Shown here: one piece after another, positions 6,359 through 29,126 of the stretch
How positions within the stretch are numbered: the stretch's first letter is position 1
Layout: every line of letters starts with the position of its first letter
From: Acaryochloris thomasi RCC1774
GTDB taxonomy: Bacteria > Cyanobacteriota > Cyanobacteriia > Thermosynechococcales > Thermosynechococcaceae
NCBI RefSeq assembly: GCF_003231495.1
Contig: NZ_PQWO01000005.1
Coordinates: 240,001 to 272,000, forward strand
Length of the DNA: 32,000 nucleotides
Direction of reading: 5' to 3'
Made by a program: the position numbers and the translations under genes
The notes under the pieces: model-generated
The model's input: the letters and a program-made list of their open reading frames with translations, nothing else
Database searches by the model: none
What the model was told of the DNA's origin: nothing

Positions 6359-8905
6359 ATGAGAGCCGTACTCATGGCCGGTGGCGAGGGAACTCGGTTG
6401 CGCCCATTGACCTGCGACCTCCCGAAGCCAATGGTCCCGATTCTCAATCGCCCCATTGCCGAGCACATTGTTAATCTGCTCAAGCGTCACCAAATCTACG
6501 AAATCATCGCCACACTGTTTTATCTGCCCGATGTGATGCGCGACTACTTTCGAGATGGGTCTCAGTTTGGTGTTCAGATGACCTATGCGGTTGAAGAAGC
6601 TCAGCCCCTGGGCACCGCTGGCTGCGTTAAAAACATCTCAGCCCTGTTGACGGATACCTTCTTAGTCATTAGCGGAGACTGTATCACTGACTTTAATTTA
6701 AGTGATGCGATCGCATTCCATAAAGAGCGAGGCTCCAAGGCAACCCTCGTGCTTGCTCGGGTTCCTAACCCCATGGAGTTCGGCGTTGTGATCACCGATG
6801 AGCAACAGCGCATCTGCCGATTTCTAGAGAAACCTTCCAGCAGCGAAATCTTTTCTGACACCGTTAATACCGGCATCTATATTTTAGAGCCGGATGTTCT
6901 CAATTACCTGCCCACTGATGAAGCCACTGACTTCTCCCATGATTTGTTTCCTCTGCTTCTAGAGAAAGGCGAACCTCTATATGGCTACGTTGCAGAGGGC
7001 TATTGGTGTGATGTCGGGAGTCTTGAGTCCTATCGAGAGGCCCAATATGATGCTCTCCATCGGGCCGTGCAGCTCAACTTTGCCTATCCAGAAACGGCTG
7101 CGGGGATTTGGATGGGGCAAAATAACTACATTGATCCACTCGCTCAGCTCAATCCACCTGTGCTGATGGGTGATAACTGCCGAATTGGCCCTCGTACCAA
7201 CCTTGAACCTGGCACCGTGATTGGCGATAACGTCATTATTGGTGCTGATGCTGATCTCAAGCGTCCGATTCTTTGGAACGGTGTTTCCGTCGGTGATGAG
7301 GCACATCTACGGGCCTGCACGCTGACGAGGGGGACACGGGTTGATCGGCGGGCGCATGTATTGGAAGGTGCTGTCGTGGGTGCCCTGTCAGCCATTGGTG
7401 AAGAAGCCCAGGTCAGCTCAGGGGTTCGGATATGGCCTAGTAAAAGGGTAGAACCCGGCGCTACGCTAAATATCAACTTGATTTGGGGCAATACTGCCCG
7501 CCGCAATCTTTTTGGGCAGAGAGGGGTGGCGGGCTTAGCCAACGTGGACTTCACCCCTGAGTTCGCGGTCAAATTGGGGGCGGCCTATGCTTCTACGTTG
7601 AAGGCTGGCTCTCAAGTGGTGATCTCGCGCGACCAGCGCAGCATCTCTCGGATGGTCTCACGGTCCTTGGTCTCGGGTTTAATGTCTGTGGGCGTAAATG
7701 TTCAGAATCTAGAGGCCACCGCCTTACCCATCTCGCGTTGCGTGGTGCGTACCCTCGATGTCACGGGCGGGATCCACGTTCGTATTCACCCTGACCGGTC
7801 TGACTACATCTTGATTGAGTTTTTTGATAAGCAGGGCATCAATGTCTCGAAAGGGAAAGAAAAAAAGATCGAAGGGGCTTACTTCAAAGAAGATTTTCGC
7901 CGCGCACCCATCGACGAAATTGGCAGGATTACCTACCCCAGTCAGATTCCCGAACTCTATGCCACTGACTTTGAAAAGCACCTGAATACCGACGCGATTC
8001 GTGAAGGTAACTTCAAGGTCGTCATTGACTATGTCTATGCGGTTTCGGGGGCTGTTCTGCCTCAGTTCTTGAATAAGTTTGGCTGTGACGTCGTGGTTCT
8101 CAACGCCAGCCTCCGAGAAACAAACCCCTCGCCTGAAGAACGGGCCGAACTATTGGAGCAATTAGGGCCGGTTGTCGAAGCTCTCAAGGCTCACATCGGA
8201 GTTCAGGTGGCCGCGAATGGGGAACAATTGATTTTAGTTGATGAGACCGGTAGCGCCATTGAGGGTGAGCAGCTCACGGCTCTGATGGTGGAAATTATCT
8301 TAACGGCTCATTCACGGGGAACTGTCGTGGTGCCGGTCAATGTCTCTAGTGCCGTTGATTTAGTTGCCCGACGGCACGATGCTAGAGTCATTCGCACGAA
8401 GGTCAATCCCACCGCCCTGATGGAAGCCTGCCGCGAGAATCCTGACGTGGTGTTGGGTGGTAGTGCCGAAAGCGGCTTTATTTTTCCGCAGCTTCATCCG
8501 GGGTTTGATGCCATGTTTTCCATTGCGAAGCTTATTGAGATGCTGCGGCTGCAGTCTCAACCCCTCGGGCAACTCAGAGCGGATTTGCCTCAAGTTTTCC
8601 ACCGTGCTCAGGATGTACGCTGTCCGTGGATTTGCAAGGGGGCGTTAATGCGTCATCTGATTGAAACACATCCGCCAGAATTGCTGGAACTGCTGGATGG
8701 GGTGAAGATCATTCAGCCGCAGACTGATAACTGGGTGCTAATTTTGCCAGATGCTAGTGAACCTTTGGTGCACCTGTATGCCAATGGCTCTGACCGCGAA
8801 TGGGTTGATTCAAGGCTGGCTGACTATTGCCAGCGTGTCCAAGATTTCATCGTTTGTGATCCAGATACTGAGATAGCCTCCGACAAGGTGGCTTCTGGTG
8901 TTTAG
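6359..8905 (+). CDS. Sugar-phosphate nucleotidyltransferase (mannose-1-P guanylyltransferase-like) fused to left-handed beta-helix repeats and a phosphohexomutase-like C-terminal module
   Basis: 848 aa. The N-terminus '[18 protein letters not shown]' is the NTP-transferase signature. Hexapeptide-repeat-like sequence spans about aa 270-370. The C-terminal half aligns to PGM/PMM domain architecture, but its catalytic motifs are degenerate (see findings). Confidence 0.85.
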
Positions 8906-13559: not shown

Positions 13560-15323
13560 CTATTGTATAAACGGCTGGAGATCAAAGCTGTATAACGCTC
13601 CGTGTTGACCAGACCAAGTCGCCGCAATTAGCTGAGATTGATGGGATGCGATCTCACTCACAACGTCTTGATTGCCCACAGGTAAATTCAGGTGTCTGAG
13701 CAAATCTCCTGACTCGTTAATTAAGGCAACGCCCCCCGTTTGATTTGCCAATAAATAGCCCCAAGGCGTCGCAACACCAAAGGTCGGAGACAGCGGTAGA
13801 GCAATCTGCTTGATCCGCAGCGGGTTGAGGGTGATCCAAAAACTGGCCTCAGCCGCTAGGGCCAAAACTTGATAGGGATGCGTCTGACTTTGAATTAGCT
13901 GGTGTATTGGTCGAGGCAGTCGGCAATAGTCAAACGTATTGCCTCGGCGGTTGAATAGCCGCAAGCACACCCCTTGAGCTTCAGGAATTGCCATGATGCC
14001 ACGGCGATCATCCAGCGTTAGCCAGTGAGTTGGCGATCCGGCCACGCTGCATCGGGGCTGCAGCGTTGGTAAGCGCAGAATCTGGCATTGGCCCCCTAGA
14101 CGACTGCTTTCAGTCGCGACCCCCAACCATTCTCCGCCCGATTCGACTGTCATCTTTAATGATTCAGACTGCCAAGTGCCTAAAGTGTGAACGGAGCTGT
14201 CTTGAGCTGCCTCATTTTCAGACGCTTTGGGTCGCCAGCAGAGTGCGTGAGCAGTGGCTCGCTGTGTTCTAATAAAAAGTCCCTGGGGGCTGCTCCACAT
14301 TTGCATAACCCGTCCCTGAGTTATGGGGTACTGTGTGGGTTCATCAAAGCCTGCGGGTGTAATGGATTGGCAAGTAACCTGTGAATCTAGGCCACAGTAG
14401 AGTTGATCCGCATCTGTTGCGAGGGCCAAAACAGTCGCAGCTAAAGCTGTTGTATGCAGGACCGGCAGTTCTGAAGGTGGTGAAATTGGAGTGGGGCGTT
14501 CTTCCGCCGCCGCTGCTAGGCGGAGAAGCTTCAGCATTGACTGGGCAGAGTCGAAGCGTTTCTGAGGTAGCTTTTGCGTCGCTTGTCGAATAATATCGCT
14601 TACAACCGTCGGGATGGTGTCAGGAATCTCGAGGAATTGATTGAGATGGGCCGTCATCAGATCGCCCGGCGTGCCGGAAAAGGGACGATGTCCGAGCACT
14701 AGCTCATAGAGCAGTACGCCCGCGGCATAAAAATCGGAGGCTGGAGAGTAGCTGCTGTAAAATCGCTCGGGAGCCATGTAGGCTGGGGAGCCGGTGTCGC
14801 CTCGTCGAGTTTCAGAGTCTGGTTCAGCCAGCAGTCGAGCGACGCCAAAGTCAGAGAGATGAGCCATCCAGCCAGTGGCCGTCAACGTCAGCAAGACATT
14901 CTCTGGTTTCAGGTCGCAATGGACAATTCCGCGTTGATGGGCATGGGCAAGACCCTCTACGACGTCAATCACAAGCTGAAGAGATTGTTTGAGATTTAGT
15001 TGCCCAGGCGTATCGATGAGCTGTCGCAGCGTTCCACCTTCACAGTAGTCCATGACCAGGTAGCGACCCGACTTACTGTATTCGAGAGTATGAAACGCAA
15101 CGATGTTTGGGTGCTGCAAGCTCGCCAGCAGGTTGAGTTCATGCAGGAATCGTGGTGTTGTTAACCGGCTATTATCTAGCTGCTTGAGCGCGACAATCTT
15201 TCCTGTCTGGCGGTGGATGCCGCAGAACACTCGACCAAATTGGCCTTGGCCGATGGGTCCTAAAACGCGATATTTTGGACCGGCAATATTTTTATCTATG
15301 GTGCCTAGCGGGCAAGTTTTCAT
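13560..15323 (-). CDS. spkG: Hanks-type Ser/Thr protein kinase with a C-terminal domain of about 300 aa and unknown function. It occupies the position of Synechocystis slr0152 (SpkG).
   Basis: The Gly loop is 'GQGQFGRV' and the Lys motif is 'VALKQL'. The catalytic loop is 'HCDLKPENVL', followed by 'SDFG' and 'SPAYMAPE'. The orthology call rests on synteny as the last gene of the pap-like operon, not on a search. Confidence 0.85.
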   Translation of the reverse strand: MKTCPLGTIDKNIAGPKYRVLGPIGQGQFGRVFCGIHRQTGKIVALKQLDNSRLTTPRFLHELNLLASLQHPNIVAFHTLEYSKSGRYLVMDYCEGGTLRQLIDTPGQLNLKQSLQLVIDVVEGLAHAHQRGIVHCDLKPENVLLTLTATGWMAHLSDFGVARLLAEPDSETRRGDTGSPAYMAPERFYSSYSPASDFYAAGVLLYELVLGHRPFSGTPGDLMTAHLNQFLEIPDTIPTVVSDIIRQATQKLPQKRFDSAQSMLKLLRLAAAAEERPTPISPPSELPVLHTTALAATVLALATDADQLYCGLDSQVTCQSITPAGFDEPTQYPITQGRVMQMWSSPQGLFIRTQRATAHALCWRPKASENEAAQDSSVHTLGTWQSESLKMTVESGGEWLGVATESSRLGGQCQILRLPTLQPRCSVAGSPTHWLTLDDRRGIMAIPEAQGVCLRLFNRRGNTFDYCRLPRPIHQLIQSQTHPYQVLALAAEASFWITLNPLRIKQIALPLSPTFGVATPWGYLLANQTGGVALINESGDLLRHLNLPVGNQDVVSEIASHQSQLIAATWSGQHGALYSFDLQPFIQ

Positions 15324-15371
15324 TATTCAGGTTTGAGTTGATTCGTTGCCCGCTAGAGCAAGGTCTGCGGC

Positions 15372-16313
15372 TTAATCGAACAAGCTACCAATCACGAGGG
15401 GCTCGTCGCTCTGACTTTCAGATGGCGCTTCGGGCTCCATCTCAACGGCGGCAGGCGCGAGTTCATGCTGCTCTTGGCTCAAGCTCATGGCTTCATCATA
15501 ATGCTCTAAATCACCTGCTTCAAAGTAAAGCTTAGCGGCGATGCGCAAATCGGCCACGGCGTGCTTCTTCTCGTCAATTGTGCCTCGCAGTGCACCCCGC
15601 TGAAAATAAGCGTCTGCATAGTCGGGATCTAGGGCAATGGCTTGGGAGTAATCGTCAATGGCAATGCGCTGGTCGTCTAGGCGACAAAGGCTTCCTCTGA
15701 CCAATCCCCTGCGATAGTAAAGGGTTGCATCTCTGGGCGTCGCGCGGATGATTTGGGTAAATAAATCAATTTGGTGGAGCTGCTCTAAAGCAGTGGCTAG
15801 GCTCTGTTCTTTCTCTCTGAGACTATCAGAGTCTGCCTGCAGTTCTTCCGTTTTCTTGACCAGTGCGACTTCGTGCTCTTCGAGGATCTCTAGCTTTTCG
15901 TTCATGGTCTCCAACGCGTTTTGTTGGGCCTGATTTTGCTTGGTGATGGCTTCGATGCTGAGCTGTTTGTCTTCGTCCTGCTGGGTAAGCGTTGCGATCG
16001 CATCTTTACGCTTTTGACCGTTTTGAGTCAGGGTTTCAATCTGAGCCTTCCGTTCTTGATCCTGCTGTGAGATCTGGGCAATCATCAGTTGACGCACCTG
16101 CCCCGCAGACTCAGTGAGACGGCGGCGGTTTGCCAAATGAAGCGTGGCCGTGAGCGACAGCGGAATGGACGCAAAGACGACTTGGTTGGTCACTGCCGAG
16201 GCAATGGCGCCACCCACAGAGCCCACCACTGAGATCATCTCGACATGGTTAAGCCAGTGGGACCGTTTGGCCTCTGCTTGAGCATTCAATAGGTGTTGCA
16301 TAATCTTGTTCAA
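15372..16313 (-). CDS. Membrane-anchored coiled-coil/TPR protein (slr0151-like position)
   Basis: 313 aa. A hydrophobic stretch spans aa 25-60 (ISVVGSVGGAIASAVTNQVVFASIPLSL). A Gln-rich coiled coil with units of about 14 aa spans aa 83-180. TPR-like repeats span aa 193-275 ('AIALDPDYADAYFQRG'). The tail is acidic. Confidence 0.85.
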   Translation of the reverse strand: MNKIMQHLLNAQAEAKRSHWLNHVEMISVVGSVGGAIASAVTNQVVFASIPLSLTATLHLANRRRLTESAGQVRQLMIAQISQQDQERKAQIETLTQNGQKRKDAIATLTQQDEDKQLSIEAITKQNQAQQNALETMNEKLEILEEHEVALVKKTEELQADSDSLREKEQSLATALEQLHQIDLFTQIIRATPRDATLYYRRGLVRGSLCRLDDQRIAIDDYSQAIALDPDYADAYFQRGALRGTIDEKKHAVADLRIAAKLYFEAGDLEHYDEAMSLSQEQHELAPAAVEMEPEAPSESQSDEPLVIGSLFD

Positions 16314-16337
16314 TCCCTTGAAAAGTTGATAAAGGTT

Positions 16338-16805
16338 TTAGCTCAACAGCGCTTGGCTGAGCTGGAGGGCTGGCGTCATTTGCTTAGCTTCTTCTGGTGT
16401 GAGCTGTTGCTCCATGACCTTGGGCGTCACTTGGCTCACGATTTGTGAGGTCTGCTGGTCTTGGAAAGCGTTGATGAGGGTGCGTTGCCAGAGCAGCATG
16501 CTGTCCCGCAGGCGGTCGAGGTCGCTAACCAGCATGGCGGCGGCAGAGCTTTTGAGCAGATGTTTGCGATCGCGACGGCAGGTTTCGACCATGTCCCGAG
16601 TGCCCTTATGGAAAACGCGGGCATTCTTTTCCAAAGCCTTCTCCTCGATCTGATCCATGATCTGCTCTTCAGCATCCCGAATCTTTTCGTAGGCGCTGAT
16701 GCGATGATCGGCAGACTCTAGATAGTCCTTGATAAACTGGAGTTCTGTAGCGGTGGCAAAGCGTCCATCTGCATCCAGACTGACCCGTGCAAGTTGTGTC
16801 AACAT
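16338..16805 (-). CDS. Phycobiliprotein-fold (PF00502-like) protein, not a canonical phycobilisome subunit (slr0149-like position)
   Basis: 155 aa. 'DADGRFATATELQFIKDYLESADHRISAYEKI' aligns by eye with allophycocyanin alpha '[32 protein letters not shown]'. 'ETCRRD' aligns with the chromophore-Cys motif 'TCLRD'. Confidence 0.8.
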   Translation of the reverse strand: MLTQLARVSLDADGRFATATELQFIKDYLESADHRISAYEKIRDAEEQIMDQIEEKALEKNARVFHKGTRDMVETCRRDRKHLLKSSAAAMLVSDLDRLRDSMLLWQRTLINAFQDQQTSQIVSQVTPKVMEQQLTPEEAKQMTPALQLSQALLS

Positions 16806-16834
16806 AATTCAAGATCCCCTTACGAATGTGGTGC

Positions 16835-17317
16835 CTATACGGCTTGTGACTGATTAAGATACTGCGAGACTTCAGAGCGCGTATCTTCAAGCTGGCTAAT
16901 CATTGACCGCGTGATCAATTTGCCTTCCTCTACTAAGACCTGACCATTGAGCGGATGGAGAATATTTTGTTCAGCCCGTCGGCCAATCAAATCTTCGACA
17001 TCAGCCATATCGCTGAGGTACATCCCCGACGGTAGCTCGATGACCACGCCTTCGCCCAGAACGCGTGTTTGGCAGGCGAGACGTGACATGCGATTGCAGG
17101 TGGTGATCACCTCTAAAGATCGCTGCTCACGACGGTTCATGGGCGACAAGCTCTCCATGCCGTCTTTGATGTAGACGTGACAGGTGGCGCACATGCCACG
17201 GCCCCCGCATTCATGCAGCACCTTGAGATCGTGCTGCAATAACCCCGACAACAAATTATCGTTCGTTGCGATTGCGGTCTCCTGATTGATAGGGTCCAGC
17301 TTGACAAGCTTCGCCAC
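16835..17317 (-). CDS. 2Fe-2S ferredoxin with a C-terminal extension of about 60 aa (slr0148/Fed5-like position)
   Basis: 160 aa. The Cys ligand pattern is C37-x5-C43-x2-C46...C82 ('ECGGRGMCATCHV' ... 'LACQ'), which is adrenodoxin-like spacing. The extension covers aa 100-160. Confidence 0.88.
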   Translation of the reverse strand: MAKLVKLDPINQETAIATNDNLLSGLLQHDLKVLHECGGRGMCATCHVYIKDGMESLSPMNRREQRSLEVITTCNRMSRLACQTRVLGEGVVIELPSGMYLSDMADVEDLIGRRAEQNILHPLNGQVLVEEGKLITRSMISQLEDTRSEVSQYLNQSQAV

Positions 17318-17386
17318 CTTAGATGCTCCTTTTACATGAGTAGTGAGTGAAAGAGGCCCTTGATGGGCCTTTAGACGGGTTTAACC

Positions 17387-18802
17387 CTACGCCCCTAGAT
17401 TTTCTAGCTCATCAAGACCGGCAAGACGCTCGAGATCTGCGAGTTCAGCTAGATTGCCCAGTGCTTCCAGAGAATCTGGAGAGAGATCGGACTCCTGTGA
17501 CTCGTCCTGTGGCTCTGCCACCATTTCTGGCATAGAGACATCAGATGCCTCTTCAGTCATGCTGCCCAGCTGTTCTAATTCAACGGGCGCGGCTGTGTCT
17601 GTGATTTCTCCAGACATCTCCTGTGGCTCTTCCGTCATCTCCGGTGCAGAGATATCAGTGGCCTCTTCTGTGATGGCGTCAGGCTGTTCTGCCTCGGCAG
17701 GCGCGGCTGTGTCCGCGATTTCCTCAGATATGTCTGTGGAAAAGTCTAGACTGTCGAGATCGGGTAGGTCTGCCAGCATTTCTGATGCTTCTACCGAATC
17801 TAGTGTGGGTGGCTCTTCTGTGGCCGCCTCCGGCTCAGCTGGTGCAGGCATCTCAGCCATCTCTATGGCTGTCTCCGGCTCTGGCATGAAGCTTTCTGCA
17901 GCGGCAATGACTGGTTCTTCGATGGCGGCGATCTCAGCGGGTGCTTCTGCCTCAGCCATAGATGAGGGGACCATATCTGCTTCTGCCATCTCGACCGAGT
18001 CCTCTGGCTCCGGCATTAGGCTCTCTGCTGCGGCATCAGGCATCTCGGCGGGTGTCTCGATGCTCTCCATCGATGCCTCAGGCATCAGGCTCTCGGGTGA
18101 TGGCTCGGATGCGGGCTCAGAAATCTCAGCTTGATCGAGTCCTAGGCGCATCATGATCGTGTCATGGTCCTGCTGCTCTTCAATGCCGGTTTCCGCTACT
18201 TTCAGTCGTTCTTCTAGACCTAAGATAAAGGTATTCTCAGGTGCACCCATCGATTCACAGGTGGTTTGCACGCAGTGCAGTTCCTGGCCGGTGAGCTGAC
18301 TAAAAAACGTGCTGAGTAGGCCCGCTTCTGCATGACAGGTGGGACGTTCTGCGGGACTCTCGTCGCTCTGCTGAACTGCAGCAAAGGCAGAATTTTCCAC
18401 TGTTGCGATAATGAAGCCTTGGGCATAGTGTTTGAACTCTAGGTTCAAATTGCCCCAGCCATAGGTTTTCCAGCACTGCTTGAGGCACTGGAGAAACTCC
18501 ACCATCTCCATTTCAGCCAAGGGCTTGTCATAGTAGGTGCTGATCTCTTCAGCGAAGCGGCGATAAAAATATTTGCCCCACCAATGTCCGCACTGGAACA
18601 TGACGAGTCCTGCAGATGGACCCACTTCCTCTCTTAGGCTGCTGTAGAGCGCCTGCAGTAGAGTGTCGGGAAGGGCAATGAGCCGGTTGCCCTGGCGATT
18701 TTCGAGCAGACCTAGCTCAAAGTCTCCCTGTACGTAGGCATCGGGGGCAAAATAATTGCCGGGTAAACGGTCTTTGTTAAGTAATTCAGCAACTGCAATC
18801 AT
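17387..18802 (-). CDS. V4R (4-vinyl-reductase-type) domain protein with a repetitive acidic tail of about 250 aa (slr0147-like position)
   Basis: 471 aa. The first 205 aa or so carry the V4R hallmark 'TCHAEAGLLSTFFSQLTGQELHCVQTTCESMGAPENTF'. Residues 222-471 are Glu/Asp/Pro/Ala/Met-rich with internal repeats. Confidence 0.88.
   Translation of the reverse strand: MIAVAELLNKDRLPGNYFAPDAYVQGDFELGLLENRQGNRLIALPDTLLQALYSSLREEVGPSAGLVMFQCGHWWGKYFYRRFAEEISTYYDKPLAEMEMVEFLQCLKQCWKTYGWGNLNLEFKHYAQGFIIATVENSAFAAVQQSDESPAERPTCHAEAGLLSTFFSQLTGQELHCVQTTCESMGAPENTFILGLEERLKVAETGIEEQQDHDTIMMRLGLDQAEISEPASEPSPESLMPEASMESIETPAEMPDAAAESLMPEPEDSVEMAEADMVPSSMAEAEAPAEIAAIEEPVIAAAESFMPEPETAIEMAEMPAPAEPEAATEEPPTLDSVEASEMLADLPDLDSLDFSTDISEEIADTAAPAEAEQPDAITEEATDISAPEMTEEPQEMSGEITDTAAPVELEQLGSMTEEASDVSMPEMVAEPQDESQESDLSPDSLEALGNLAELADLERLAGLDELENLGA
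17501..17728 (-). repeat. Tandem 114-bp (38-aa) coding repeat, two copies, inside the acidic tail
   Basis: SEEIADTAAPAEAEQPDAITEEATDISAPEMTEEPQEM is followed by SGEITDTAAPVELEQLGSMTEEASDVSMPEMVAEPQDE. At DNA level, GGCGCGGCTGT starts at both 17586 and 17700, a spacing of 114 bp. Confidence 0.85.
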
Positions 18803-18829
18803 GATGGTGTTTTGTTCTCCGGTATGGGA

Positions 18830-19309
18830 TTAGCCTGCGGTCACGAGGTCGTTACCCACCAGGATCTGCTGGGTTTGAGTTAGATAAGGCTGGATTAAAG
18901 TCCACTGATGGGCAGACAGGACTTCTTTGAGGCGAGCTTCAAGGAGTTGGCTGAGCTGATATTCGAGATCTACAAGCTGATGGGCCTGTACGACATCGGT
19001 GAGCCATTCCAGGAGTCGGTGTCGCAGGAATTCTGGGTTGTTGCTCAGCATCGCCATCGCGCTGTAGCGAAGGGCTGAGATCCAGTGCTGTAGAGCTTTT
19101 TCTTGACGCTGAGCATTTTCGCTAGGGCAGGTGGCCTCAAGCTGATCGGCAATCGGTTGCCAGATCTGTTGTTCTTTGTCTCGCAGCAGTTCATAGGTCT
19201 GCAGCCGCTGCTCTAGAGCGCTGACGTGCTGTTTAAAGTCAGTGATCTCAGCGTTTGTGAGGTAATGGTCTTCTGCGTCCTGCAGAAATTGTTGGAAGTC
19301 AGAGTGCAT
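18830..19309 (-). CDS. Second phycobiliprotein-fold protein, lacking the canonical chromophore Cys (slr0146-like position)
   Basis: 159 aa. 'AEDHYLTNAEITDFKQHVSALEQRLQTYELL' matches the N-terminal helix pattern of phycobiliproteins. The position equivalent to C-x-R-D reads 'KALQHW'. Confidence 0.75.
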   Translation of the reverse strand: MHSDFQQFLQDAEDHYLTNAEITDFKQHVSALEQRLQTYELLRDKEQQIWQPIADQLEATCPSENAQRQEKALQHWISALRYSAMAMLSNNPEFLRHRLLEWLTDVVQAHQLVDLEYQLSQLLEARLKEVLSAHQWTLIQPYLTQTQQILVGNDLVTAG

Positions 19310-19317
19310 AATGGCCC

Positions 19318-19743
19318 CTAAAATAAATCAGAGAAGTCAGAGAGATTTAAGTCACTGCTGTCAACGGGTGGGTCGACGGCGTTGAGTTTGGGGACTGCCG
19401 CAATTTCAGGCTGGGCTTCCCAAACAAATAGGTTGAAAAATTTGTTGACGGGTAGGGTCGCGTTCAAGGCGATGGAACTGATGACACTGGAACTGATAAC
19501 AGTCTGGGTTGGGTTGGTTGGGTTGGCTGCTTTGGGTGCCTTGACGGGCTGCAGTTTGCCATTCCAGTTGCTGTGACTCAGAAAGTCTTGGACGGTTTGA
19601 CTCTGCCAAGATTGAGGTGCGTGCTGTCGGGGTGTGTGCTGTCGGGGTGTGTTTCGGGCTGGGGCTTTGGGTAATGTTTTGCCCTGCCAGTTGCACTGCC
19701 GGAGGAACTCTTGAACGGTGGAAAATTGCCAGTCACGGCTCAT
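19318..19743 (-). CDS. Small protein with a repeated W..TVQ(E/D)FL...NW.GK motif (slr0145-like position)
   Basis: 141 aa. 'WQFSTVQEFLRQCNWQGK' and 'WQSQTVQDFLSHSNWNGK' are separated by a Pro/Arg/Gln linker that contains the tandem PRQHTPRQHA. The C-terminus is acidic ('DLNLSDFSDLF'). The start overlaps the upstream stop in an ATGA arrangement (19740-19743). Confidence 0.7.
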   Translation of the reverse strand: MSRDWQFSTVQEFLRQCNWQGKTLPKAPARNTPRQHTPRQHAPQSWQSQTVQDFLSHSNWNGKLQPVKAPKAANPTNPTQTVISSSVISSIALNATLPVNKFFNLFVWEAQPEIAAVPKLNAVDPPVDSSDLNLSDFSDLF

Positions 19744-20453
19744 GACAGGTATTCTCCGTTGTGCAGACGCTTTTCAATGTCGCGCATGCTGGCACCTTCG
19801 TTTTGCCAAAAAGTAGCGGCGTCGATGCGATCGCGTTTGCCTAAAAGAAACTTGCAGTAAGTTTCGCCCATGGCGTAGCACTGTAGCTCGATACAGCTCA
19901 TGTCTTTTTGGACTAAGTTGCTAAAGAACCCTGCAAACAAACCGGCATAGATATGGCAGACGGGCTTACCCACATCTCCCAAGGTGCGGGCCACGGCAGA
20001 GTCAAAAATATTGATGAACATGAATCCATTTTTCTGGTCGCTGAGATCCACATCCCAGTTGCCCCAGCCTTGGCTTGTAAACGGCCACCACCAGGCTTCT
20101 AGAGCAAAGGATGGATTGCACTGCCGCAAACCCATGCCATAGTCTTTTTCAAACCAGCTCTGGAAGAAGGCGGCATCACGCTCTCCCCAAGCTTTACCAA
20201 TGTTGTACATGATAACGCTGGAGGCACTCCCAACTTCTTGCTCTAGCCCTTCAATTAAAGCTAGAATAAAGTCCTCGCTCGCTAAAATATTGCGAGACTC
20301 GTGCCAGTCATTAATTGTCCCCTGCTCTGGCTGGAAGGTGAAGAAGTCTGAAAAGCTGTAGTGATTCCGCTTGGATGGATATCTTTGCTTGTGTGATACC
20401 GGCTGGTCGAGACTCACCCCAAGAGGGGCTACTTCAGTGGGTGTAAAAACCAT
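19740..20453 (-). CDS. V4R (4-vinyl-reductase-type) domain protein, first gene of the operon (slr0144-like position)
   Basis: 237 aa. 'VCHIYAGLFAGFFSNLVQKDMSCIELQCYAMGETYCKFLL' is the typical V4R C-terminal Cys/Gly pattern. Confidence 0.88.
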   Translation of the reverse strand: MVFTPTEVAPLGVSLDQPVSHKQRYPSKRNHYSFSDFFTFQPEQGTINDWHESRNILASEDFILALIEGLEQEVGSASSVIMYNIGKAWGERDAAFFQSWFEKDYGMGLRQCNPSFALEAWWWPFTSQGWGNWDVDLSDQKNGFMFINIFDSAVARTLGDVGKPVCHIYAGLFAGFFSNLVQKDMSCIELQCYAMGETYCKFLLGKRDRIDAATFWQNEGASMRDIEKRLHNGEYLS

Positions 20454-20473
20454 CTGTCACTGATCCTATTGTC

Positions 20474-20498
20474 CTAAGTAAACTGATGCTTTACTTAG
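20474..20498 (-). promoter_or_regulatory. Perfect 9-bp dyad/hairpin in the leader of the V4R operon
   Basis: Arms CTAAGTAAA (20474-20482) and TTTACTTAG (20490-20498) flank a 7-nt loop. The element ends 20 nt upstream of the start codon at 20453 and just upstream of an AGGA. Confidence 0.4.
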
Positions 20499-20531
20499 CA
20501 TTCCCACTTCAAAGGCAATCTCTTAGCTTTG

Positions 20532-20549
20532 TCGCAAAGGAATTTGCGA
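20532..20549. promoter_or_regulatory. Perfect palindrome TCGCAAA-GGAA-TTTGCGA in the operon's upstream region
   Basis: The arms are 7 bp with a 4-bp spacer. TTATAC-N8-TTATAC direct repeats lie about 30 bp away, at 20581-20600. The binding factor is unknown. Confidence 0.3.
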
Positions 20550-20761
20550 ATTTATAAGAATACTCAATGTATATTGTGTTTTATACGCTGTACGTTATAC
20601 ACAGAATCCCCTGTCCGCTTGGGTTCCGTTTGTTCTTGCGATCGCAGGTGGACAAAACAAAATCTGATTAACTGTGAGCTTCATCCTTCTTAGATTCTCG
20701 TTTTAATGGCGCAGGTGCCGTTCCGCTGAGGCGTCTTGAAGCCCCTGGGATGCTCTCCCTG

Positions 20762-21664
20762 TTATTGCTGCTGAGCCAGAATCAGCTTCAGTATGATCTG
20801 CAGATCGGCCAGCCGTTCAAGCGTAGTGTCAGACCAGTTCGGGTCCGGCTGAGGGGAATGTAGGTAAAGGGTTCCCCAGAGCTGCTGTTCTGCCAGAATT
20901 GGCACCACCACCAGCGCTCTTGTTTGTAGCGCTTGGAGATTATCCCAGAGTGCTGGGGGTGCAGGATCCTTCGTCAGGCTCAATTGATCAAGGGCTAATA
21001 TCTCTCCCTGCTGCAGCCTGTGCTGCCAATCTGGCTGCAAGGCTAAATCAAAGTTGGATGGATTTTCGAGGGACGGAAGTGCTGCTGATTCAACCCATCG
21101 TGAAGTCTGCTGCTGCCAAAGATGAATACGATGGGTCAACGTGACGGACTGCAGAGCATTGACTAATTGCTGAAGCTGTTCCCACAACTCTTGGTCATGA
21201 TTATGGAGACTTTGGCTCAGGCACTGGGTCCAGCCCTCTAGTTTGCTGCACGTGGCCTCGGCGGTGATCAGAGCTTGGTGGGTCGCCAACAGCCTCCGGA
21301 CTCGCTCTGAAAGAACGGGCCAATTAATCGGCTTGGTAATGTAGTCGGTGGCCCCGACAGCAAAGGCCTGATCGACGGAGGCTTGATCATCCAGCACCGT
21401 GAGAATCAGCAGCGGAACGCGATCGCCCCCTGGTAGCTGACGGAGACGCTGACAGCAGTTGAAGCCATCCATTCCTGGCATGACGGCATCCATTAGCACT
21501 AAATTAGGCTGACTGATCCGATATTCTGCCAGCCCCTGCTCGCCATCTTTGGCTTCCACCACTTGATAGCCTTCTGTTGACATGGCGAGATTCAAGAGTC
21601 CACGGGTAGAGCGATCGTCGTCAATAATCAGAACGACGGGAGAGGCTGGGGCTGGCGCGGTCAT
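20762..21664 (-). CDS. Response regulator, REC plus C-terminal GAF-like domain
   Basis: 300 aa. REC motifs are 'VVLIIDDD', 'LVLMDAVMPGMDG' and 'ATDYITKPI'. The C-terminal 150 aa or so have a GAF-like pattern ('ALVVVPILAEQQLWGTLYLHS...WSDTTLERLADL'). Confidence 0.88.
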   Translation of the reverse strand: MTAPAPASPVVLIIDDDRSTRGLLNLAMSTEGYQVVEAKDGEQGLAEYRISQPNLVLMDAVMPGMDGFNCCQRLRQLPGGDRVPLLILTVLDDQASVDQAFAVGATDYITKPINWPVLSERVRRLLATHQALITAEATCSKLEGWTQCLSQSLHNHDQELWEQLQQLVNALQSVTLTHRIHLWQQQTSRWVESAALPSLENPSNFDLALQPDWQHRLQQGEILALDQLSLTKDPAPPALWDNLQALQTRALVVVPILAEQQLWGTLYLHSPQPDPNWSDTTLERLADLQIILKLILAQQQ

Positions 21665-21675
21665 GCTTCGTTTCC

Positions 21676-25131
<3,456 letters not shown>

Positions 25132-25146
25132 TGAGTGATCGGATCT

Positions 25147-27429
25147 CTATGAACATGGGCTAGCGGGCCGCAGGGTCGAGACGGGCTGCAGGACTGTGGA
25201 CTGTAGCTGGGATTTCAGCTCGGAAGGGAGTCTGCATTCTCCGCTCAGACAGTCTACTAGTCGCTGATTCGCTTGATAGTACTGTTGAAGCTGTCCTTGT
25301 CCCTTGGGCGGCCAGTTGAGGTGACGATGCTCAGTGAGCCAGGCCTGGAAGCTTTCAACCCATTGGAGCCCATCGGTCTGCCACCAGTTCTGGAGATTTA
25401 TTTCACCCATGGCGGGGTCAGGAAGTTTTTCTTTGAGGGCTTGCCAGCTTTGGCGCAGTGGTGTTTCAAAGGTAAACCGCTGTTCTAGGTCCAACGCGAA
25501 GCTGAAGTTGAGAATTTCTTTGAGACTAGATCCTTTCACTAATGGCAAGCTGAGGTTGAAGGCCCGCACGAAGGCCAGGTCTAGGGCCAAGGCGTCAGGC
25601 AGGTCATTGGCAAGGGTTGGATCAAGTGCGATCGCAAGGTTCAGATCCCGATCAAACAGCAGACTGAAGTAGAATGCCCTCACTGCCGCTGGCTTGCAGT
25701 CGAGCTCTAGCCCACTTACCTTGCGATCGAGTCCAGCGAGAAACTTTTGCAAGGATTCTGTGTGGGCCAAGCCTTGAATTTGAGCCTGGATTTGCTGTAC
25801 CAGATCGGTCGCATCCGGCAGCATGCTGCTGGTGAGCAGCAGTACCTCACGCCACTGAGCATCACAGACATGGGTCGCTAAGTGCGCCAACGCTTGCTGG
25901 CGAGATGCTGGAGGCGTCGCTACAATTTTGCGAGCGGCGAGATATTCCTGAAAGGTCAAATGCGAGAATGAATAGACATCTCGGGCTCGCTCAACCAGCA
26001 AGCCGTGCTGCAGAACAATGGAGCCCAGTACAGCCTCACTAGCTTGCCAAAGCACCTCTGGATCTGAGCTAACGTCGGCAAAACTGGATAGATACCCGGC
26101 AATAATCCGTAGGACATCCTGTTTCTCAAAATAGAAATGGCCCTGCTCAAAGGTCGTTGCGGCAATCTGCCCCATTAGCGTGATTTTTTGCGCCCGCGAG
26201 AGCTGTTGATAGGTCGTGTCTCGATGGATGCCTCGGGCCTGATCCCAGCGACCCAGCAGAATATCTAAAGCCGCTTTGTAAAGCTTTGCGCGATTGCTGG
26301 GAAAGGAAGACCGCTCCTGAAAAACAGAACAGACCAAGCTGAGCAACAGTGGACTGACCACTAATTCTCGAATCGGCTGATTCTCATGCTGCTGGAGCTG
26401 CTCGAAAAACTGGGTGGCTTTAGAGAGTCCTGCTGTCTTTGAATTCTGGGCCGTCGCGACGAAATAGCGACGGGCAAAGGCTTCAATTTGGGCCTGATTG
26501 AAGTCTGCTAGCTCAACGTAGGTGAACCCACGAAAGTAATAGGATTGGGCGGCAATCCGGCAGGTGACAATGATCTGGCATTGATAGTACTGATCGGCAA
26601 AGTCTTGAATTTGGTGAATGAGACTTTGGCTGTTCTCTTGAGCCACCTCATCAAGGCCATCCAGCAGAATCAGTACACGGCCCTGCTGTAGCAACCGTTC
26701 GAGTTGCTCATCTGCAAGGCCGCTGCCGTTCCAGACCCGGCTGATGTAATCGACAATGCTGAAATCATCTTGGGCGGTGCGCGTCAGCATCCGCAGCGGG
26801 ATAAAAATGGGAATGCATTCCGGTCGTAGACGGTTGCCTTGGCACTCAAGGGCAATGTGCTGTAAAAAAGTAGTCTTACCGGCTCCAGGTTTACCCACAA
26901 TCACTAGCTTTGAGTGGGCCTTAATGGTTTCTGCACCCTGCGTTAAATCGTCATGGACCGGCATAAATCGGGTGGATTCCGTTGCGGTCTGTAGCTCAGA
27001 AATCTCTAGCCAGCGCTGGTGGGTCAGTTGGGGCAACGTTTGAATGCCGGTATAGATCTCACTGAGCTGCAGCGTATGAGTTACGTCTAGCGAAGACTGC
27101 AGGATGCCACACTGGGCCTGTAGTTGACCTTGCTGATAAGTTCGCAGTCTTTGAACCCATTCGTCTAACTCTTGCGCCGTGGAGGTTGCTCTGAGGTCGT
27201 CGGGGCTAGGAAGGCCTGCAATCTCCTGCCATTCCAGGTCCAGCTGAAAGCAAAGATCAATAAAAATATGTCGCTCAATGGGTTTCCCGGTGAAAAATTT
27301 CCAAATGGGTTGCCGGGTCTGGACGCTTACCTGGGCAGCTAAATACTCCTGAGTCCACCCAAGGCGTTGAAAGGCCTGTTTGGCTTTGATGGCACCGACA
27401 GGTGTGGCAAAAAGCGATCGTTTTGCCAT
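25147..27429 (-). CDS. STAND NTPase: N-terminal XRE-like HTH, NACHT domain and C-terminal helical region, with no WD40/TPR repeats
   Basis: 760 aa. The HTH is 'GWTQEYLAAQVSVQTRQPIWKFFTGKPIERHIFIDLCFQLDLEWQEI'. Walker A is 'GKPGAGKTT' (26869-26895) and Walker B is 'VLILLDGLDEV'. The C-terminal 'LQQYYQANQRLVDCLSGEC' resembles the helical module that I recall preceding repeat arrays in other cyanobacterial NACHT proteins. Confidence 0.88.
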   Translation of the reverse strand: MAKRSLFATPVGAIKAKQAFQRLGWTQEYLAAQVSVQTRQPIWKFFTGKPIERHIFIDLCFQLDLEWQEIAGLPSPDDLRATSTAQELDEWVQRLRTYQQGQLQAQCGILQSSLDVTHTLQLSEIYTGIQTLPQLTHQRWLEISELQTATESTRFMPVHDDLTQGAETIKAHSKLVIVGKPGAGKTTFLQHIALECQGNRLRPECIPIFIPLRMLTRTAQDDFSIVDYISRVWNGSGLADEQLERLLQQGRVLILLDGLDEVAQENSQSLIHQIQDFADQYYQCQIIVTCRIAAQSYYFRGFTYVELADFNQAQIEAFARRYFVATAQNSKTAGLSKATQFFEQLQQHENQPIRELVVSPLLLSLVCSVFQERSSFPSNRAKLYKAALDILLGRWDQARGIHRDTTYQQLSRAQKITLMGQIAATTFEQGHFYFEKQDVLRIIAGYLSSFADVSSDPEVLWQASEAVLGSIVLQHGLLVERARDVYSFSHLTFQEYLAARKIVATPPASRQQALAHLATHVCDAQWREVLLLTSSMLPDATDLVQQIQAQIQGLAHTESLQKFLAGLDRKVSGLELDCKPAAVRAFYFSLLFDRDLNLAIALDPTLANDLPDALALDLAFVRAFNLSLPLVKGSSLKEILNFSFALDLEQRFTFETPLRQSWQALKEKLPDPAMGEINLQNWWQTDGLQWVESFQAWLTEHRHLNWPPKGQGQLQQYYQANQRLVDCLSGECRLPSELKSQLQSTVLQPVSTLRPASPCS

Positions 27430-27791
27430 AAATTCCTACTCCTATGGACCGATGGCTATGTGAGCCTTTTTTCTGAGACTGAATATGATCGGGTTCTCAA
27501 GACCCAACGGTAGGGTACCCAAAATTCTCCTAATTCGATCTCTCGTTTTGTCAGATTAACGTCAAAAAAGTCAGCCCAAAGCTTTAGGGGTTGCTTTAAA
27601 AGTGTCGGATCATGATGTTGAGTACCCAATGATTCCCCTAGCTCTCTTAGAAAGATGCTAACAGCCTCTAAATTCCTTTTGAGAAGGTAAAACTATAGAT
27701 CTCTAAATACTTTGATTCTAACTTTAGTCTGTTCATGCAGTCTCTGAAAGGCTATCAGCATTTGCTGTTCTGCTGCAGGTCAGTTAAAACA

Positions 27792-29126
27792 CTAGCCGAC
27801 TAGCAGAGACTCCTCTGGGTAATGTACTTTTCTTGGTTTCGGGTCTCCTAAAATGACCGTCATCAAAAGCAGAATCCCTACTCGACCCATGTACATCGTG
27901 AGGACTAACAGCAGCTTTGCTGTCGCAGATAAGCTGGTGGTGATGCCTGTCGACAAACCCACGGTGGCGAAGGCTGAGACCACTTCAAACAAAATCTGAA
28001 TAAAGCCAATCTCTGGATCAGTGAACGCAATCAGGGTGGTAATAATGACCACCGCTGTGATTGAGCCCAGAAAAACCCCAATGGCTTTTAAAATCATTGA
28101 GATGGGAATTTCACGTTCGTACATACAAACATCTTCACGACCTTGAAGAATGGCTCGGGTTGCGCCTGCCAAAATCCGTAATGTTGTTGTTTTGACGCCG
28201 CCGCCTGTTCCGCCGGGGCTGGCTCCGACAAACATTAGGGCAATGGTCATGAATAAACCGGCGGTGCTCATCTTGCCCACGTCAATGGAGTTGAATCCTG
28301 CAGTTCTCGCGGTCATGGACTGGAACCAAGCGGCTAAAACCTGTTGTTTGAGATTAAGCGACCCTAGAGTCGCTGGATTCCGAATTTCTGTGAGAAAAAA
28401 GGCGACGGTGCCCATGCTGAGCAATACGACGGTAGTGCTGATGACGACCCGAAAGTTAAGGGAAAAAATCATGCGCTCTGCTTTGCCAGAGATGCGATCG
28501 CGTCCCCAGAGATAAGCCTCGAACAGCGTCTCGTAACCAATACCGCCAAAAATCACAAGGGCAGGCACCACCAAATGCATCAGCCATGAAGACTGATAGC
28601 CCGTCAAGCTATCAGAGAAGAGGCTAAAGCCTGCATTGTTCCAAGCGCTCACGCTATGGAATAGCGAGAGCCAAAGGCCTTGGGACCAGCCATAGTTGGG
28701 TACAAAAACCCACAGCATCGCGAACAGTCCCGTCAGCTCAAATAGGATAATAGTAGAAATGATCGACTGAACCAGTCGAGCGCTTCCCTGCATTTTGCGC
28801 CGATCAAGGGATTGCTGAAGCGCAATTTTATCTCGCAGGCCAAACTTGCGACCTAGAAGCAATAGTAAGAAAGTGGTGGACATCATGTAGCCCAATCCCC
28901 CGACCTGAATCAGGGCCAGAATAATCCCTTGCCCCCAACGGGAAAAGTAGGTGCCGGTGTCCACAACGATGTGGCCGGTTACACAGACGGCTGACGTTGC
29001 CGTAAACAGTGCGACCAGCGGATCATTCCATTGCCCACTGGTCGTGGAAAAGGGCAGCAGCAGTAATAGGGTGCCTACCACAATGAGAGCTAAAAACCCC
29101 AGACAAATCGTGCGAGAGACGGTCAT
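27792..29126 (-). CDS. ktrB: TrkH/KtrB-family K+ transporter membrane subunit
   Basis: 444 aa and polytopic. Repeated pore-loop glycine motifs are present ('TATSAVCVTG', 'QVGGLGY', 'NNAGFS', 'RTAGFNS', 'ATVGLSTG'). No ktrA/trkA gene is adjacent. Confidence 0.85.
   Translation of the reverse strand: MTVSRTICLGFLALIVVGTLLLLLPFSTTSGQWNDPLVALFTATSAVCVTGHIVVDTGTYFSRWGQGIILALIQVGGLGYMMSTTFLLLLLGRKFGLRDKIALQQSLDRRKMQGSARLVQSIISTIILFELTGLFAMLWVFVPNYGWSQGLWLSLFHSVSAWNNAGFSLFSDSLTGYQSSWLMHLVVPALVIFGGIGYETLFEAYLWGRDRISGKAERMIFSLNFRVVISTTVVLLSMGTVAFFLTEIRNPATLGSLNLKQQVLAAWFQSMTARTAGFNSIDVGKMSTAGLFMTIALMFVGASPGGTGGGVKTTTLRILAGATRAILQGREDVCMYEREIPISMILKAIGVFLGSITAVVIITTLIAFTDPEIGFIQILFEVVSAFATVGLSTGITTSLSATAKLLLVLTMYMGRVGILLLMTVILGDPKPRKVHYPEESLLVG

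Follow-up and report, generated by a model that had tools for sequence, protein, structure and literature searches.

In the cyanobacterium Synechocystis PCC 6803, the genes for synechan, a sulfated exopolysaccharide, are controlled by three proteins coded on plasmid pSYSM: XssS (sll5060), XssR (sll5059) and XssQ (slr5058) (Maeda et al. 2021, eLife, PMC8205485). Deletion of xssS leads to overproduction, while deletion of xssR or xssQ gives null phenotypes; moreover, overexpression of xssQ bypasses the xssR deletion, but overexpression of xssR does not bypass that of xssQ. From this epistasis the order of the pathway was derived, in which XssS acts negatively on XssR, XssR acts positively on XssQ, and XssQ activates the genes. 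XssQ was termed "a new type of STAND protein" owing to its N-terminal helix-turn-helix (HTH); it shifts AAGTTxxAC DNA in electrophoretic mobility shift assays, and the genes under its control have this motif upstream, either as one copy or as tandem copies (PMC8205485). A 2026 paper reported that XssQ and XssR are sufficient in Synechococcus elongatus, and stated that the xssQ-xssR-xssS triplet is widely conserved (PMC13125312); in Anabaena, four xssQ homologues adjoin two-component genes (2025 paper). The present study concerns three minus-strand genes of Acaryochloris thomasi RCC1774, coding for an HTH-NACHT protein, a hybrid histidine kinase and a regulator with REC and GAF domains. They lie in a stretch of 32,000 nucleotides (contig NZ_PQWO01000005.1, positions 240,001 to 272,000), hereafter the window, in whose coordinates all positions are given.

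With a probability of roughly 75%, the trio is a signalling module of the XssS/XssR/XssQ type, in which the kinase would act on the REC-GAF regulator and the latter on the NACHT protein, the DNA-binding output. That the module works like the Synechocystis Xss system is inferred from homology, conserved linkage and conserved operator boxes. An earlier reading, made from the sequence only, knew of no characterised system in which a NACHT NTPase is coupled to a phosphorelay; XssS/XssR/XssQ is one, published and experimentally dissected since 2021 (PMC8205485; PMC13125312), and the window locus, whose proteins are its homologues, belongs to that kind.

The three genes and their Xss counterparts

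The genes of the trio and the spacers between them are the following:

25147-27429, minus strand: XssQ-like HTH-NACHT-NCH2 gene, 760 amino acids (aa), ATG start (open reading frame listing)
25132-25146, minus strand: spacer between the NACHT stop and the kinase GTG, 15 nt, sequence read directly
21676-25131, minus strand: XssS-like hybrid histidine kinase gene, 1151 aa, GTG start (open reading frame listing)
21665-21675, minus strand: spacer between the kinase stop and the regulator ATG, 11 nt, purine-rich (ggaaacgaagc), sequence read directly
20762-21664, minus strand: XssR-like REC-GAF regulator gene, 300 aa, ATG start (open reading frame listing)

The sequence-only reading had described three co-directional genes packed nearly end to end, and its coordinates, strand, lengths and both gaps were confirmed. 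By direct reading, the first junction runs from a TAG stop (25149-25147) over 15 nt to the GTG at 25131, with an ATG at 25122 as a second in-frame start candidate for the kinase; the second runs from a TGA stop (21678-21676) over 11 nt to the ATG at 21664. A consensus scan revealed no promoter-like or terminator-like site at these junctions and, over the whole of 20300-27900, nothing above chance. With this layout, the trio is most likely transcribed as a single operon, in the order xssQ-like, xssS-like, xssR-like. In the databases the NACHT protein is found, at 100% identity, as the hypothetical protein C1752_02102 of A. thomasi RCC1774.

The NACHT protein is 40% identical to XssQ, with which it is collinear over 759 aligned columns, and the regulator is 36% identical to XssR over the full length (E 8e-53). 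The kinase aligns with XssS in two segments, one that begins with the second GAF and includes the first receiver (45% identity, E 1e-169) and one covering the REC-HPt end (41% identity, E 4e-57). The architectures given by Pfam for the Synechocystis proteins are NACHT + NCH2 for XssQ, REC + GAF for XssR, and PAS-PAS-GAF-HisKA-HATPase-REC-REC-HPt for XssS. Both systems share an output protein composed of XRE-type HTH, NACHT and NCH2, a REC + GAF-like regulator without DNA-binding domain, and a GAF-HisKA-HATPase-REC-HPt kinase core; in both the genes are adjacent, and the recognition helices of the HTH are nearly identical (TRQPIWKFF in the window, TRNSVWKFL in XssQ). However, the N-terminus of the window kinase, with FHA, PAS-like and an extra GAF domain, is not homologous to the PAS-PAS of XssS, and the window kinase has one receiver instead of two. 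The order of the genes is co-directional Q-S-R in the window, whereas in Synechocystis Q is convergent with R-S; furthermore, the window module is chromosomal, does not lie beside sulfotransferase, glycosyltransferase or Wzx/Wzy genes, and has no AAGTTxxAC boxes within the 32 kb.

Domains were assigned at the curated cut-offs of Pfam; those of the NACHT protein are:

27214-27429, minus strand: XRE-type HTH, aa 1-72 (structure model and Foldseek)
26458-26907, minus strand: NACHT NTPase, aa 175-324 (Pfam NACHT, 75 bits)
25183-25458, minus strand: NCH2 C-terminal helical domain, aa 658-749 (Pfam NCH2, 69 bits)

The NTPase contains a Walker A motif (GKPGAGKT, at residue 179) and a Walker B motif (LILLDGLDE, at residue 253), and the protein also has helical and winged-helix domains. 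The HTH assignment rests on a structure model, because Pfam finds no HTH in the isolated N-terminus even at E<=10. Residues 1-76, which are the best-conserved part of the family in an alignment of 23 full-length orthologues, were modelled by AlphaFold2 as a five-helix bundle with a mean predicted local distance difference test (pLDDT) score of 90. The best Foldseek matches of this model, and nearly all of those listed, are cro/C1 (XRE) HTH proteins, among them HipB, C.BclI, C.AhdI, CylR2, the repressors of 434 and lambda, SinR and MBF1; their TM-scores are 0.58-0.72 and their E-values weak (1e-2); a profile search of PDB sequences gave a marginal match to HipB (E 0.23). As modelled, the N-terminus is an XRE-type HTH, predicted to bind DNA, and the earlier proposal of such a domain in the effector position is borne out by the confidence of the model and by these structural matches. 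The recognition helix is nearly invariant throughout the family.

The model of the full-length protein (mean pLDDT 75) matched NLRC4, NOD2 and NLRP3 in Foldseek, with E-values from 5e-12 to 1e-8 over 550-610 columns. These matches mark the modelled protein as a genuine NLR-type NACHT, with a predicted all-helical C-terminus and no repeat sensor, in agreement with the sequence-only reading, which had seen a helical C-terminal region lacking WD40, TPR or LRR arrays.

In MalT of Escherichia coli and in the AfsR/SARP-type regulators of Streptomyces, the nucleotide switch of a P-loop STAND NTPase controls an attached DNA-binding domain. Only this switch logic is shared with the window protein: its NACHT domain is NLRC4/NOD2-like, its NB-ARC score (22.7 bits) falls under the 23.5-bit cut-off, and LuxR, SARP and TPR domains gave no Pfam matches. 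The window HTH is XRE-type and N-terminal, in contrast to the C-terminal LuxR-type HTH of MalT or the SARP domain of AfsR, and neither TPR nor SUPR sensor repeats are present. Thus, the earlier comparison with MalT and AfsR, in preference to a defence NLR, holds for the logic and fails for family membership. Overall, the evidence supports a STAND transcription factor as a better reading of the protein than a cell-killing NLR.

The domains of the regulator and of the kinase, all on the minus strand, are:

Regulator, aa 11-122, minus strand: REC, Asp59 (Pfam, 90 bits)
Regulator, aa 163-286, minus strand: GAF-like C-terminal domain (Pfam GAF, 49 bits)
Kinase, aa 35-108 (24808-25029), minus strand: FHA (Pfam, 49 bits against a 20.7-bit cut-off)
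Kinase, about aa 140-265, minus strand: PAS-like region (Pfam PAS match under the cut-off)
Kinase, about aa 265-425, minus strand: first GAF (Pfam GAF x2, 82 bits)
Kinase, aa 444-586, minus strand: second GAF (Pfam GAF x2, 82 bits)
Kinase, aa 622-687, minus strand: HisKA, H-box His632 (Pfam, 79 bits)
Kinase, aa 734-868, minus strand: HATPase_c (Pfam, 96 bits)
Kinase, aa 904-1016, minus strand: REC, Asp952 (Pfam, 88 bits)
Kinase, aa 1062-1124, minus strand: HPt, His1095 (Pfam Hpt, 41 bits)

The regulator has no DNA-binding domain; Pfam recognizes REC and GAF only, as expected from the earlier description of its output as a GAF. The hidden Markov model (HMM) searches proposed earlier as a check of the architectures placed NACHT, FHA, GAF, HisKA and Hpt all above the Pfam cut-offs, and the phosphorelay residues His632, Asp952 and His1095 are intact. 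Of the input domains that had been predicted for the kinase, FHA and the two GAF thus exceed their cut-offs, while the PAS assignment is weaker (E 0.064, 13.7 bits, below the 22.6-bit cut-off); this region gives a weak match to the PDB PAS sensor 3ewk (E 1.7) and is conserved among FHA-kinases.

Over residues 8-1146, FHA included, the window kinase is 44-46% identical to the Pleurocapsales FHA-kinases that neighbour NACHT orthologues. Its FHA domain keeps the motifs GR (residues 37-38) and SRQH (residues 52-55). The canonical S-T-N-G motif, which contacts the phosphopeptide and is present in all other orthologues, reads S-A-A-G in the window, with loss of the Asn, and S-S-A-G in the related locus L001; in both of them the GR and SxxH motifs are retained. 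Phospho-threonine recognition may be weakened or altered in this lineage.

Linkage and operator boxes across cyanobacteria

For the comparative analysis, 80 loci (some of which are cited here by their L numbers) were fetched from one-genome-per-species contigs with the alignment of 23 full-length NACHT orthologues; all but one are labelled or evidently cyanobacterial. Neighbouring genes were detected by tblastn with the window proteins and by domain HMMs built from them. In 43 of the 80 loci the NACHT gene has a two-component gene as its immediate neighbour, compared with a background of 27/769 (3.5%) for the other genes of the same loci; L019 and L034, which carry a kinase nearby that the contiguity rule missed, are additional to the 43. 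The linkage of such genes, which the sequence-only reading had suggested to verify by gene-neighbourhood analysis, is therefore a recurrent feature. The partners are specific: of the 80 loci, 23 have a REC-GAF regulator, 31 a hybrid kinase with HPt and 14 an FHA-kinase. The adjacent gene is upstream on the same strand in 16 cases, upstream and divergent in 18, downstream on the same strand in seven, on both sides in one and convergent in one. The order NACHT-kinase-regulator on one strand is found in the window, in L001 and in the Scytonema/Tolypothrix group, while Pleurocapsales and other Acaryochloris have kinase-regulator-NACHT, also on one strand. These data support a linkage that is conserved across cyanobacterial orders in four gene arrangements; since it persists through shuffled gene orders, it is the signature of a functional unit, which the trio would represent.

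Among the closest systems are uncharacterized operons of Pleurocapsales, such as Waterburya agarophytonicola (L017) and Xenococcaceae (L010/L056), which code for full-length orthologues of all three proteins and have similarly tight, operon-like junctions. They differ from the window in the gene order (kinase, regulator, NACHT) and in having a divergent family-2 glycosyltransferase (GT2) gene with tandem AAGTTATAC boxes, neither of which occurs in the window. A further type of kinase was observed in four metagenome-assembled genomes (MAGs) of Acaryochloris sp. (L025, L027, L033 and L058), where the XssQ-like gene follows an FHA-PAS-like-HisKA/HATPase kinase without receiver or HPt; a 231-233-aa REC protein with no recognized output domain is also coded ahead of the XssQ-like gene, and the kinase gene has a tandem Xss-type box upstream. 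Two kinase types that pair with the NACHT factor thus have the FHA-PAS-like head in common. In L018, two paralogous HK-REC-REC-HPt histidine kinases (HK) flank one XssQ-like gene, one of them divergent and the other downstream on the same strand, and the locus also holds a REC-GAF regulator. L049, on a contig labelled as a Candidatus Gracilibacteria MAG, has an XssQ homologue of cyanobacterial type (53% identity) that is divided between two open reading frames, together with tandem AAGTTAGAC boxes and weak sulfotransferase-like and flippase-like matches; probably this is DNA of a cyanobacterium that was wrongly binned, and the gene has a frameshift or is a pseudogene.

Searches with AAGTTNNAC were controlled on Synechocystis, where they recovered the published sites upstream of xssA, xssE, xssL, xssN as well as xssP/xssQ; those of xssE form a tandem pair 12 bp apart. 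Single AAGTTNNAC sites are not enriched overall in the fetched loci (239, against 208 +/- 95 for permuted motifs). Enrichment is confined to tandem boxes: those at 11-12 bp spacing with <=1 mismatch numbered 13, against 1.3 +/- 0.85 in Markov simulations, and those at 10-24 bp spacing numbered 35, against 13 +/- 4. A tandem AAGTTATAC pair is found upstream of the FHA-kinase gene in six Pleurocapsales loci with full-length orthologous kinases (L015, L017, L023, L028, L030 and L056); in those whose flank is available, this region separates divergent genes, and the boxes face a gene of 344-379 aa, a GT2 (Pfam E 1e-42) that is 75-89% conserved among these loci. L017 and L028, both with perfect boxes, have the recognition helix TRQPVWKFF, essentially identical to that of the window. 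In L027 and L033, from Acaryochloris IP29b genomes, it is the FHA-PAS-kinase gene itself that the boxes precede.

The promoters of the same six Pleurocapsales loci have a strongly conserved layout, in which the two AAGTTATAC boxes, 11-12 bp apart, are followed after about 20-25 nt by the sequence ...CAGAC(G)CGATCGCA, an element that includes GCGATCGC, the HIP1 palindrome of cyanobacteria; in most of them, the GT2 gene is followed by a small REC gene that stands alone.

A Pfam census of 108 module-flanking genes showed GT2 as the commonest family (nine), with GT1/GT4 and polysaccharide-synthesis proteins recurrent; close xss homologues occur only in L054, L029, L015 and L070 among the loci. The FHA subtype shares in the association with glycan genes that is seen family-wide, as indicated by the boxes upstream of GT2 and by this GT2-led census. 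The FHA-kinase may mark a subtype of the Xss-type module that has not been described before, present in Acaryochloris and Pleurocapsales. In the literature examined, neither this FHA-input kinase subtype (14/80 loci), nor the tandem box conserved upstream of the GT2 gene in Pleurocapsales, nor the occurrence of a module away from any polysaccharide cluster was described.

Search for targets in the window, and the neighbouring V4R operon

Downstream of the trio, at 13560-20453 on the minus strand, lies a complete gene array resembling slr0144-slr0152, in which no second ferredoxin (the slr0150 equivalent) was seen. Its genes and the two intergenic regions that flank the module are:

27430-27791, minus strand: module upstream intergenic region, presumed promoter, with a block shared with L001 and no XssQ-type box
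20454-20761, minus strand: regulator-to-V4R gap, 308 bp, with a conserved promoter-like block and 5' leader and no XssQ-type box
19740-20453, minus strand: V4R
19318-19743, minus strand: protein of unknown family
18830-19309, minus strand: phycobiliprotein-like
17387-18802, minus strand: V4R, long, 471 aa
16835-17317, minus strand: 2Fe-2S ferredoxin
16338-16805, minus strand: phycobiliprotein-like
15372-16313, minus strand: TPR
13560-15323, minus strand: Ser/Thr kinase, 587 aa, in SpkG-like position, last gene of the array

Alignment with L001 revealed two perfectly conserved blocks. The first, TTTTGGGTACCCTACCGTTGGGTCTT at 27499-27524, is upstream of the NACHT gene and includes both a palindrome, GGGTACCC, and a direct repeat of TTGGGT; the second, ACACAATATACATTGAG at 20563-20579, is upstream of the V4R operon, and its flanks and the leader are conserved as well. 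As the 308-bp gap carries this block and leader of its own, a separate promoter for the V4R operon is suggested. Neither block resembles the XssQ box and both are absent upstream of the other NACHT orthologues; a k-mer enrichment search revealed no convincing motif common to the upstream regions of the whole set of NACHT orthologues, the GGGTACCC block being restricted to the window and L001. The two blocks may be operators for other regulators. Some 290 bp ahead of the NACHT gene, a half-site AAGTTAGAA with one mismatch was noticed by eye and rejected, its partner having three mismatches and the segment being absent from L001.

Several points weigh against an Xss-type module in the window. 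Exact AAGTTNNAC sites number 0 in the window, the module upstream region included, where 3.0 are expected by chance, and no tandem pair with <=1 mismatch in total was found there, a single two-mismatch pair, inside a coding region, being at chance level. The 15 Xss biosynthesis proteins found no match in the window (tblastn, E<=1e-8), nor did a sulfotransferase, and an orthologue of the Pleurocapsales GT2 is missing from it. The family is large (5624 matches at E<=1e-10), and with such paralogy function may have diverged. In addition, the kinase N-terminus differs from that of XssS, so that the signal and the sign of regulation may differ; the S-A-A-G or S-S-A-G that replaces S-T-N-G could weaken phospho-threonine binding; and in about 20 orthologue loci whose flanks are long enough no two-component gene adjoins the NACHT gene, although two of them, L019 and L034, carry the kinase nearby. 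The window lacks boxes, yet its recognition helix is that of box-bearing orthologues; the simplest reading is that the targets of the module lie elsewhere in the genome. They would most likely be outside the 32-kb window, probably not in the V4R operon, and most likely consist of glycosyltransferase or exopolysaccharide genes.

The sequence-only reading had rightly placed the module 308 bp upstream of the V4R operon on the same strand, and had taken it as the dedicated sensory and regulatory layer of the slr0144-0152-like genes, a role in which the FHA might read phosphorylation by the SpkG-like kinase. Besides the short distance and the common strand, the arrangement is kept in the close relative L001, and the operon-terminal Ser/Thr kinase (13560-15323) could make the phospho-threonine ligand of the FHA; nevertheless, this role is unlikely. 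Recurrence beside slr0144-like operons, which had been proposed as a check, was found in L001 only (1/80), where the NACHT protein is 83% identical, and the other 79 loci gave no V4R match; FHA-kinase modules of Pleurocapsales and of other Acaryochloris have no V4R operon nearby, and elsewhere no Ser/Thr kinase is consistently close to such modules. The gap has a promoter-like block of its own and lacks an XssQ-type box, the box-associated orthologues have the same recognition helix, and the window FHA has lost the Asn of its S-T-N-G motif. In Synechocystis, according to the locus tags, slr0144-0152 lies on the chromosome, whereas pSYSM carries the Xss regulators; in the published RNA-seq table, the mutant to wild-type ratios of slr0144, slr0147, slr0148 and slr0152 are 0.9-1.5 in the xssQ and xssS deletions, whereas the regulated xss genes have ratios of 0.002-0.06 (published quantitative PCR source data). 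A dedicated role in the V4R operon is therefore not sustained. Still more doubtful is a broader version, in which Ser/Thr-kinase signalling through the FHA gates the phosphorelay that switches the NACHT factor, the subtype having possibly been recruited beside the slr0144-0152-like operon; if true, it would tie photosystem-related assembly genes, or their SpkG-like kinase, to NLR-like transcriptional control.

Two further explanations have very little probability. One makes the NACHT protein an anti-phage or conflict NLR (bNACHT/Avs-like), with the two-component genes as accessory sensors or unrelated neighbours. The NACHT module is indeed related to bacterial NLR-like defence proteins and has a fold closest to NLRC4, NOD2 and NLRP3, but the matches to bNACHT, EruA and PDC-S60 reflect the shared NTPase module and are partial and under the cut-offs: that to PADLOC PDC-S60 (1.3e-14) covers the NTPase core only, while NCBIfam EruA reaches 53 bits against a cut-off of 1000 and DS8 26 bits against 790. 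Furthermore, the window protein has in the effector position a predicted DNA-binding HTH, not a nuclease, protease or toxin, its characterized homologue XssQ is a transcriptional activator, and the neighbours are housekeeping, glycosyltransferase and two-component genes, with no defence island. The other explanation sees chance neighbours, an orphan NACHT regulator and an independent two-component system. The abundance of two-component genes in cyanobacteria would make this conceivable, as would the well-flanked orthologue loci that have none adjacent; against it stand the excess of adjacency over background (43/80 against 3.5%), the recurrence of the REC-GAF regulator and of the GAF-HK-REC-HPt kinase through four gene orders, and the genetic proof of the pathway in Synechocystis (PMC8205485). 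An XssS/XssR/XssQ-type module remains the preferred reading of the trio.

Besides the V4R operon, other genes flanking the module in the window include TrkH, an aminotransferase and an iron-type alcohol dehydrogenase. The plus strand at 6359-8905 codes for an 848-aa nucleotidyl-transferase (with hexapeptide repeats) fused to phosphoglucomutase/phosphomannomutase domains I-III. This fusion, a sugar-nucleotide supply enzyme, is the sole glycan-related gene seen in the window; it is 12 kb away from the module and has no Xss-type box.

Proposed mechanism and its meaning

In the module proposed here, the cytoplasmic hybrid kinase would use its FHA, PAS-like and GAF-GAF region to sense the input, the FHA adding a presumed phospho-threonine input that is missing from the characterized XssS. 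The kinase would autophosphorylate on His632, and from there the phosphoryl group would pass via Asp952 and the HPt residue His1095 to the REC-GAF regulator, at Asp59; the kinase might also dephosphorylate this regulator. The regulator would in turn determine how active the HTH-NACHT STAND ATPase is, most plausibly by touching the helical C-terminal half of that protein directly, because neither protein has another obvious partner surface. If the module behaves like other STAND proteins, DNA binding by the HTH would be licensed by activation or oligomerization that depends on nucleotide; the HTH would then recognize boxes of the AAGTTA(G/T)AC type, which often form tandem pairs at 11-12 bp spacing, and would activate the promoters of the targets.

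Thus, a combination that looks exotic, an NLR-type ATPase together with a phosphorelay, is a characterized regulatory design that is widespread in cyanobacteria, and the annotation of these genes should read XssQ/XssS/XssR-like instead of "hypothetical NACHT protein" or defence gene. The AAGTTA(G/T)AC tandem box and the near-invariant HTH are both kept across cyanobacterial orders, which makes them usable for the prediction of regulons. Such modules also represent tractable bacterial models of how an NLR-like ATPase is activated by a response regulator without a DNA-binding domain.

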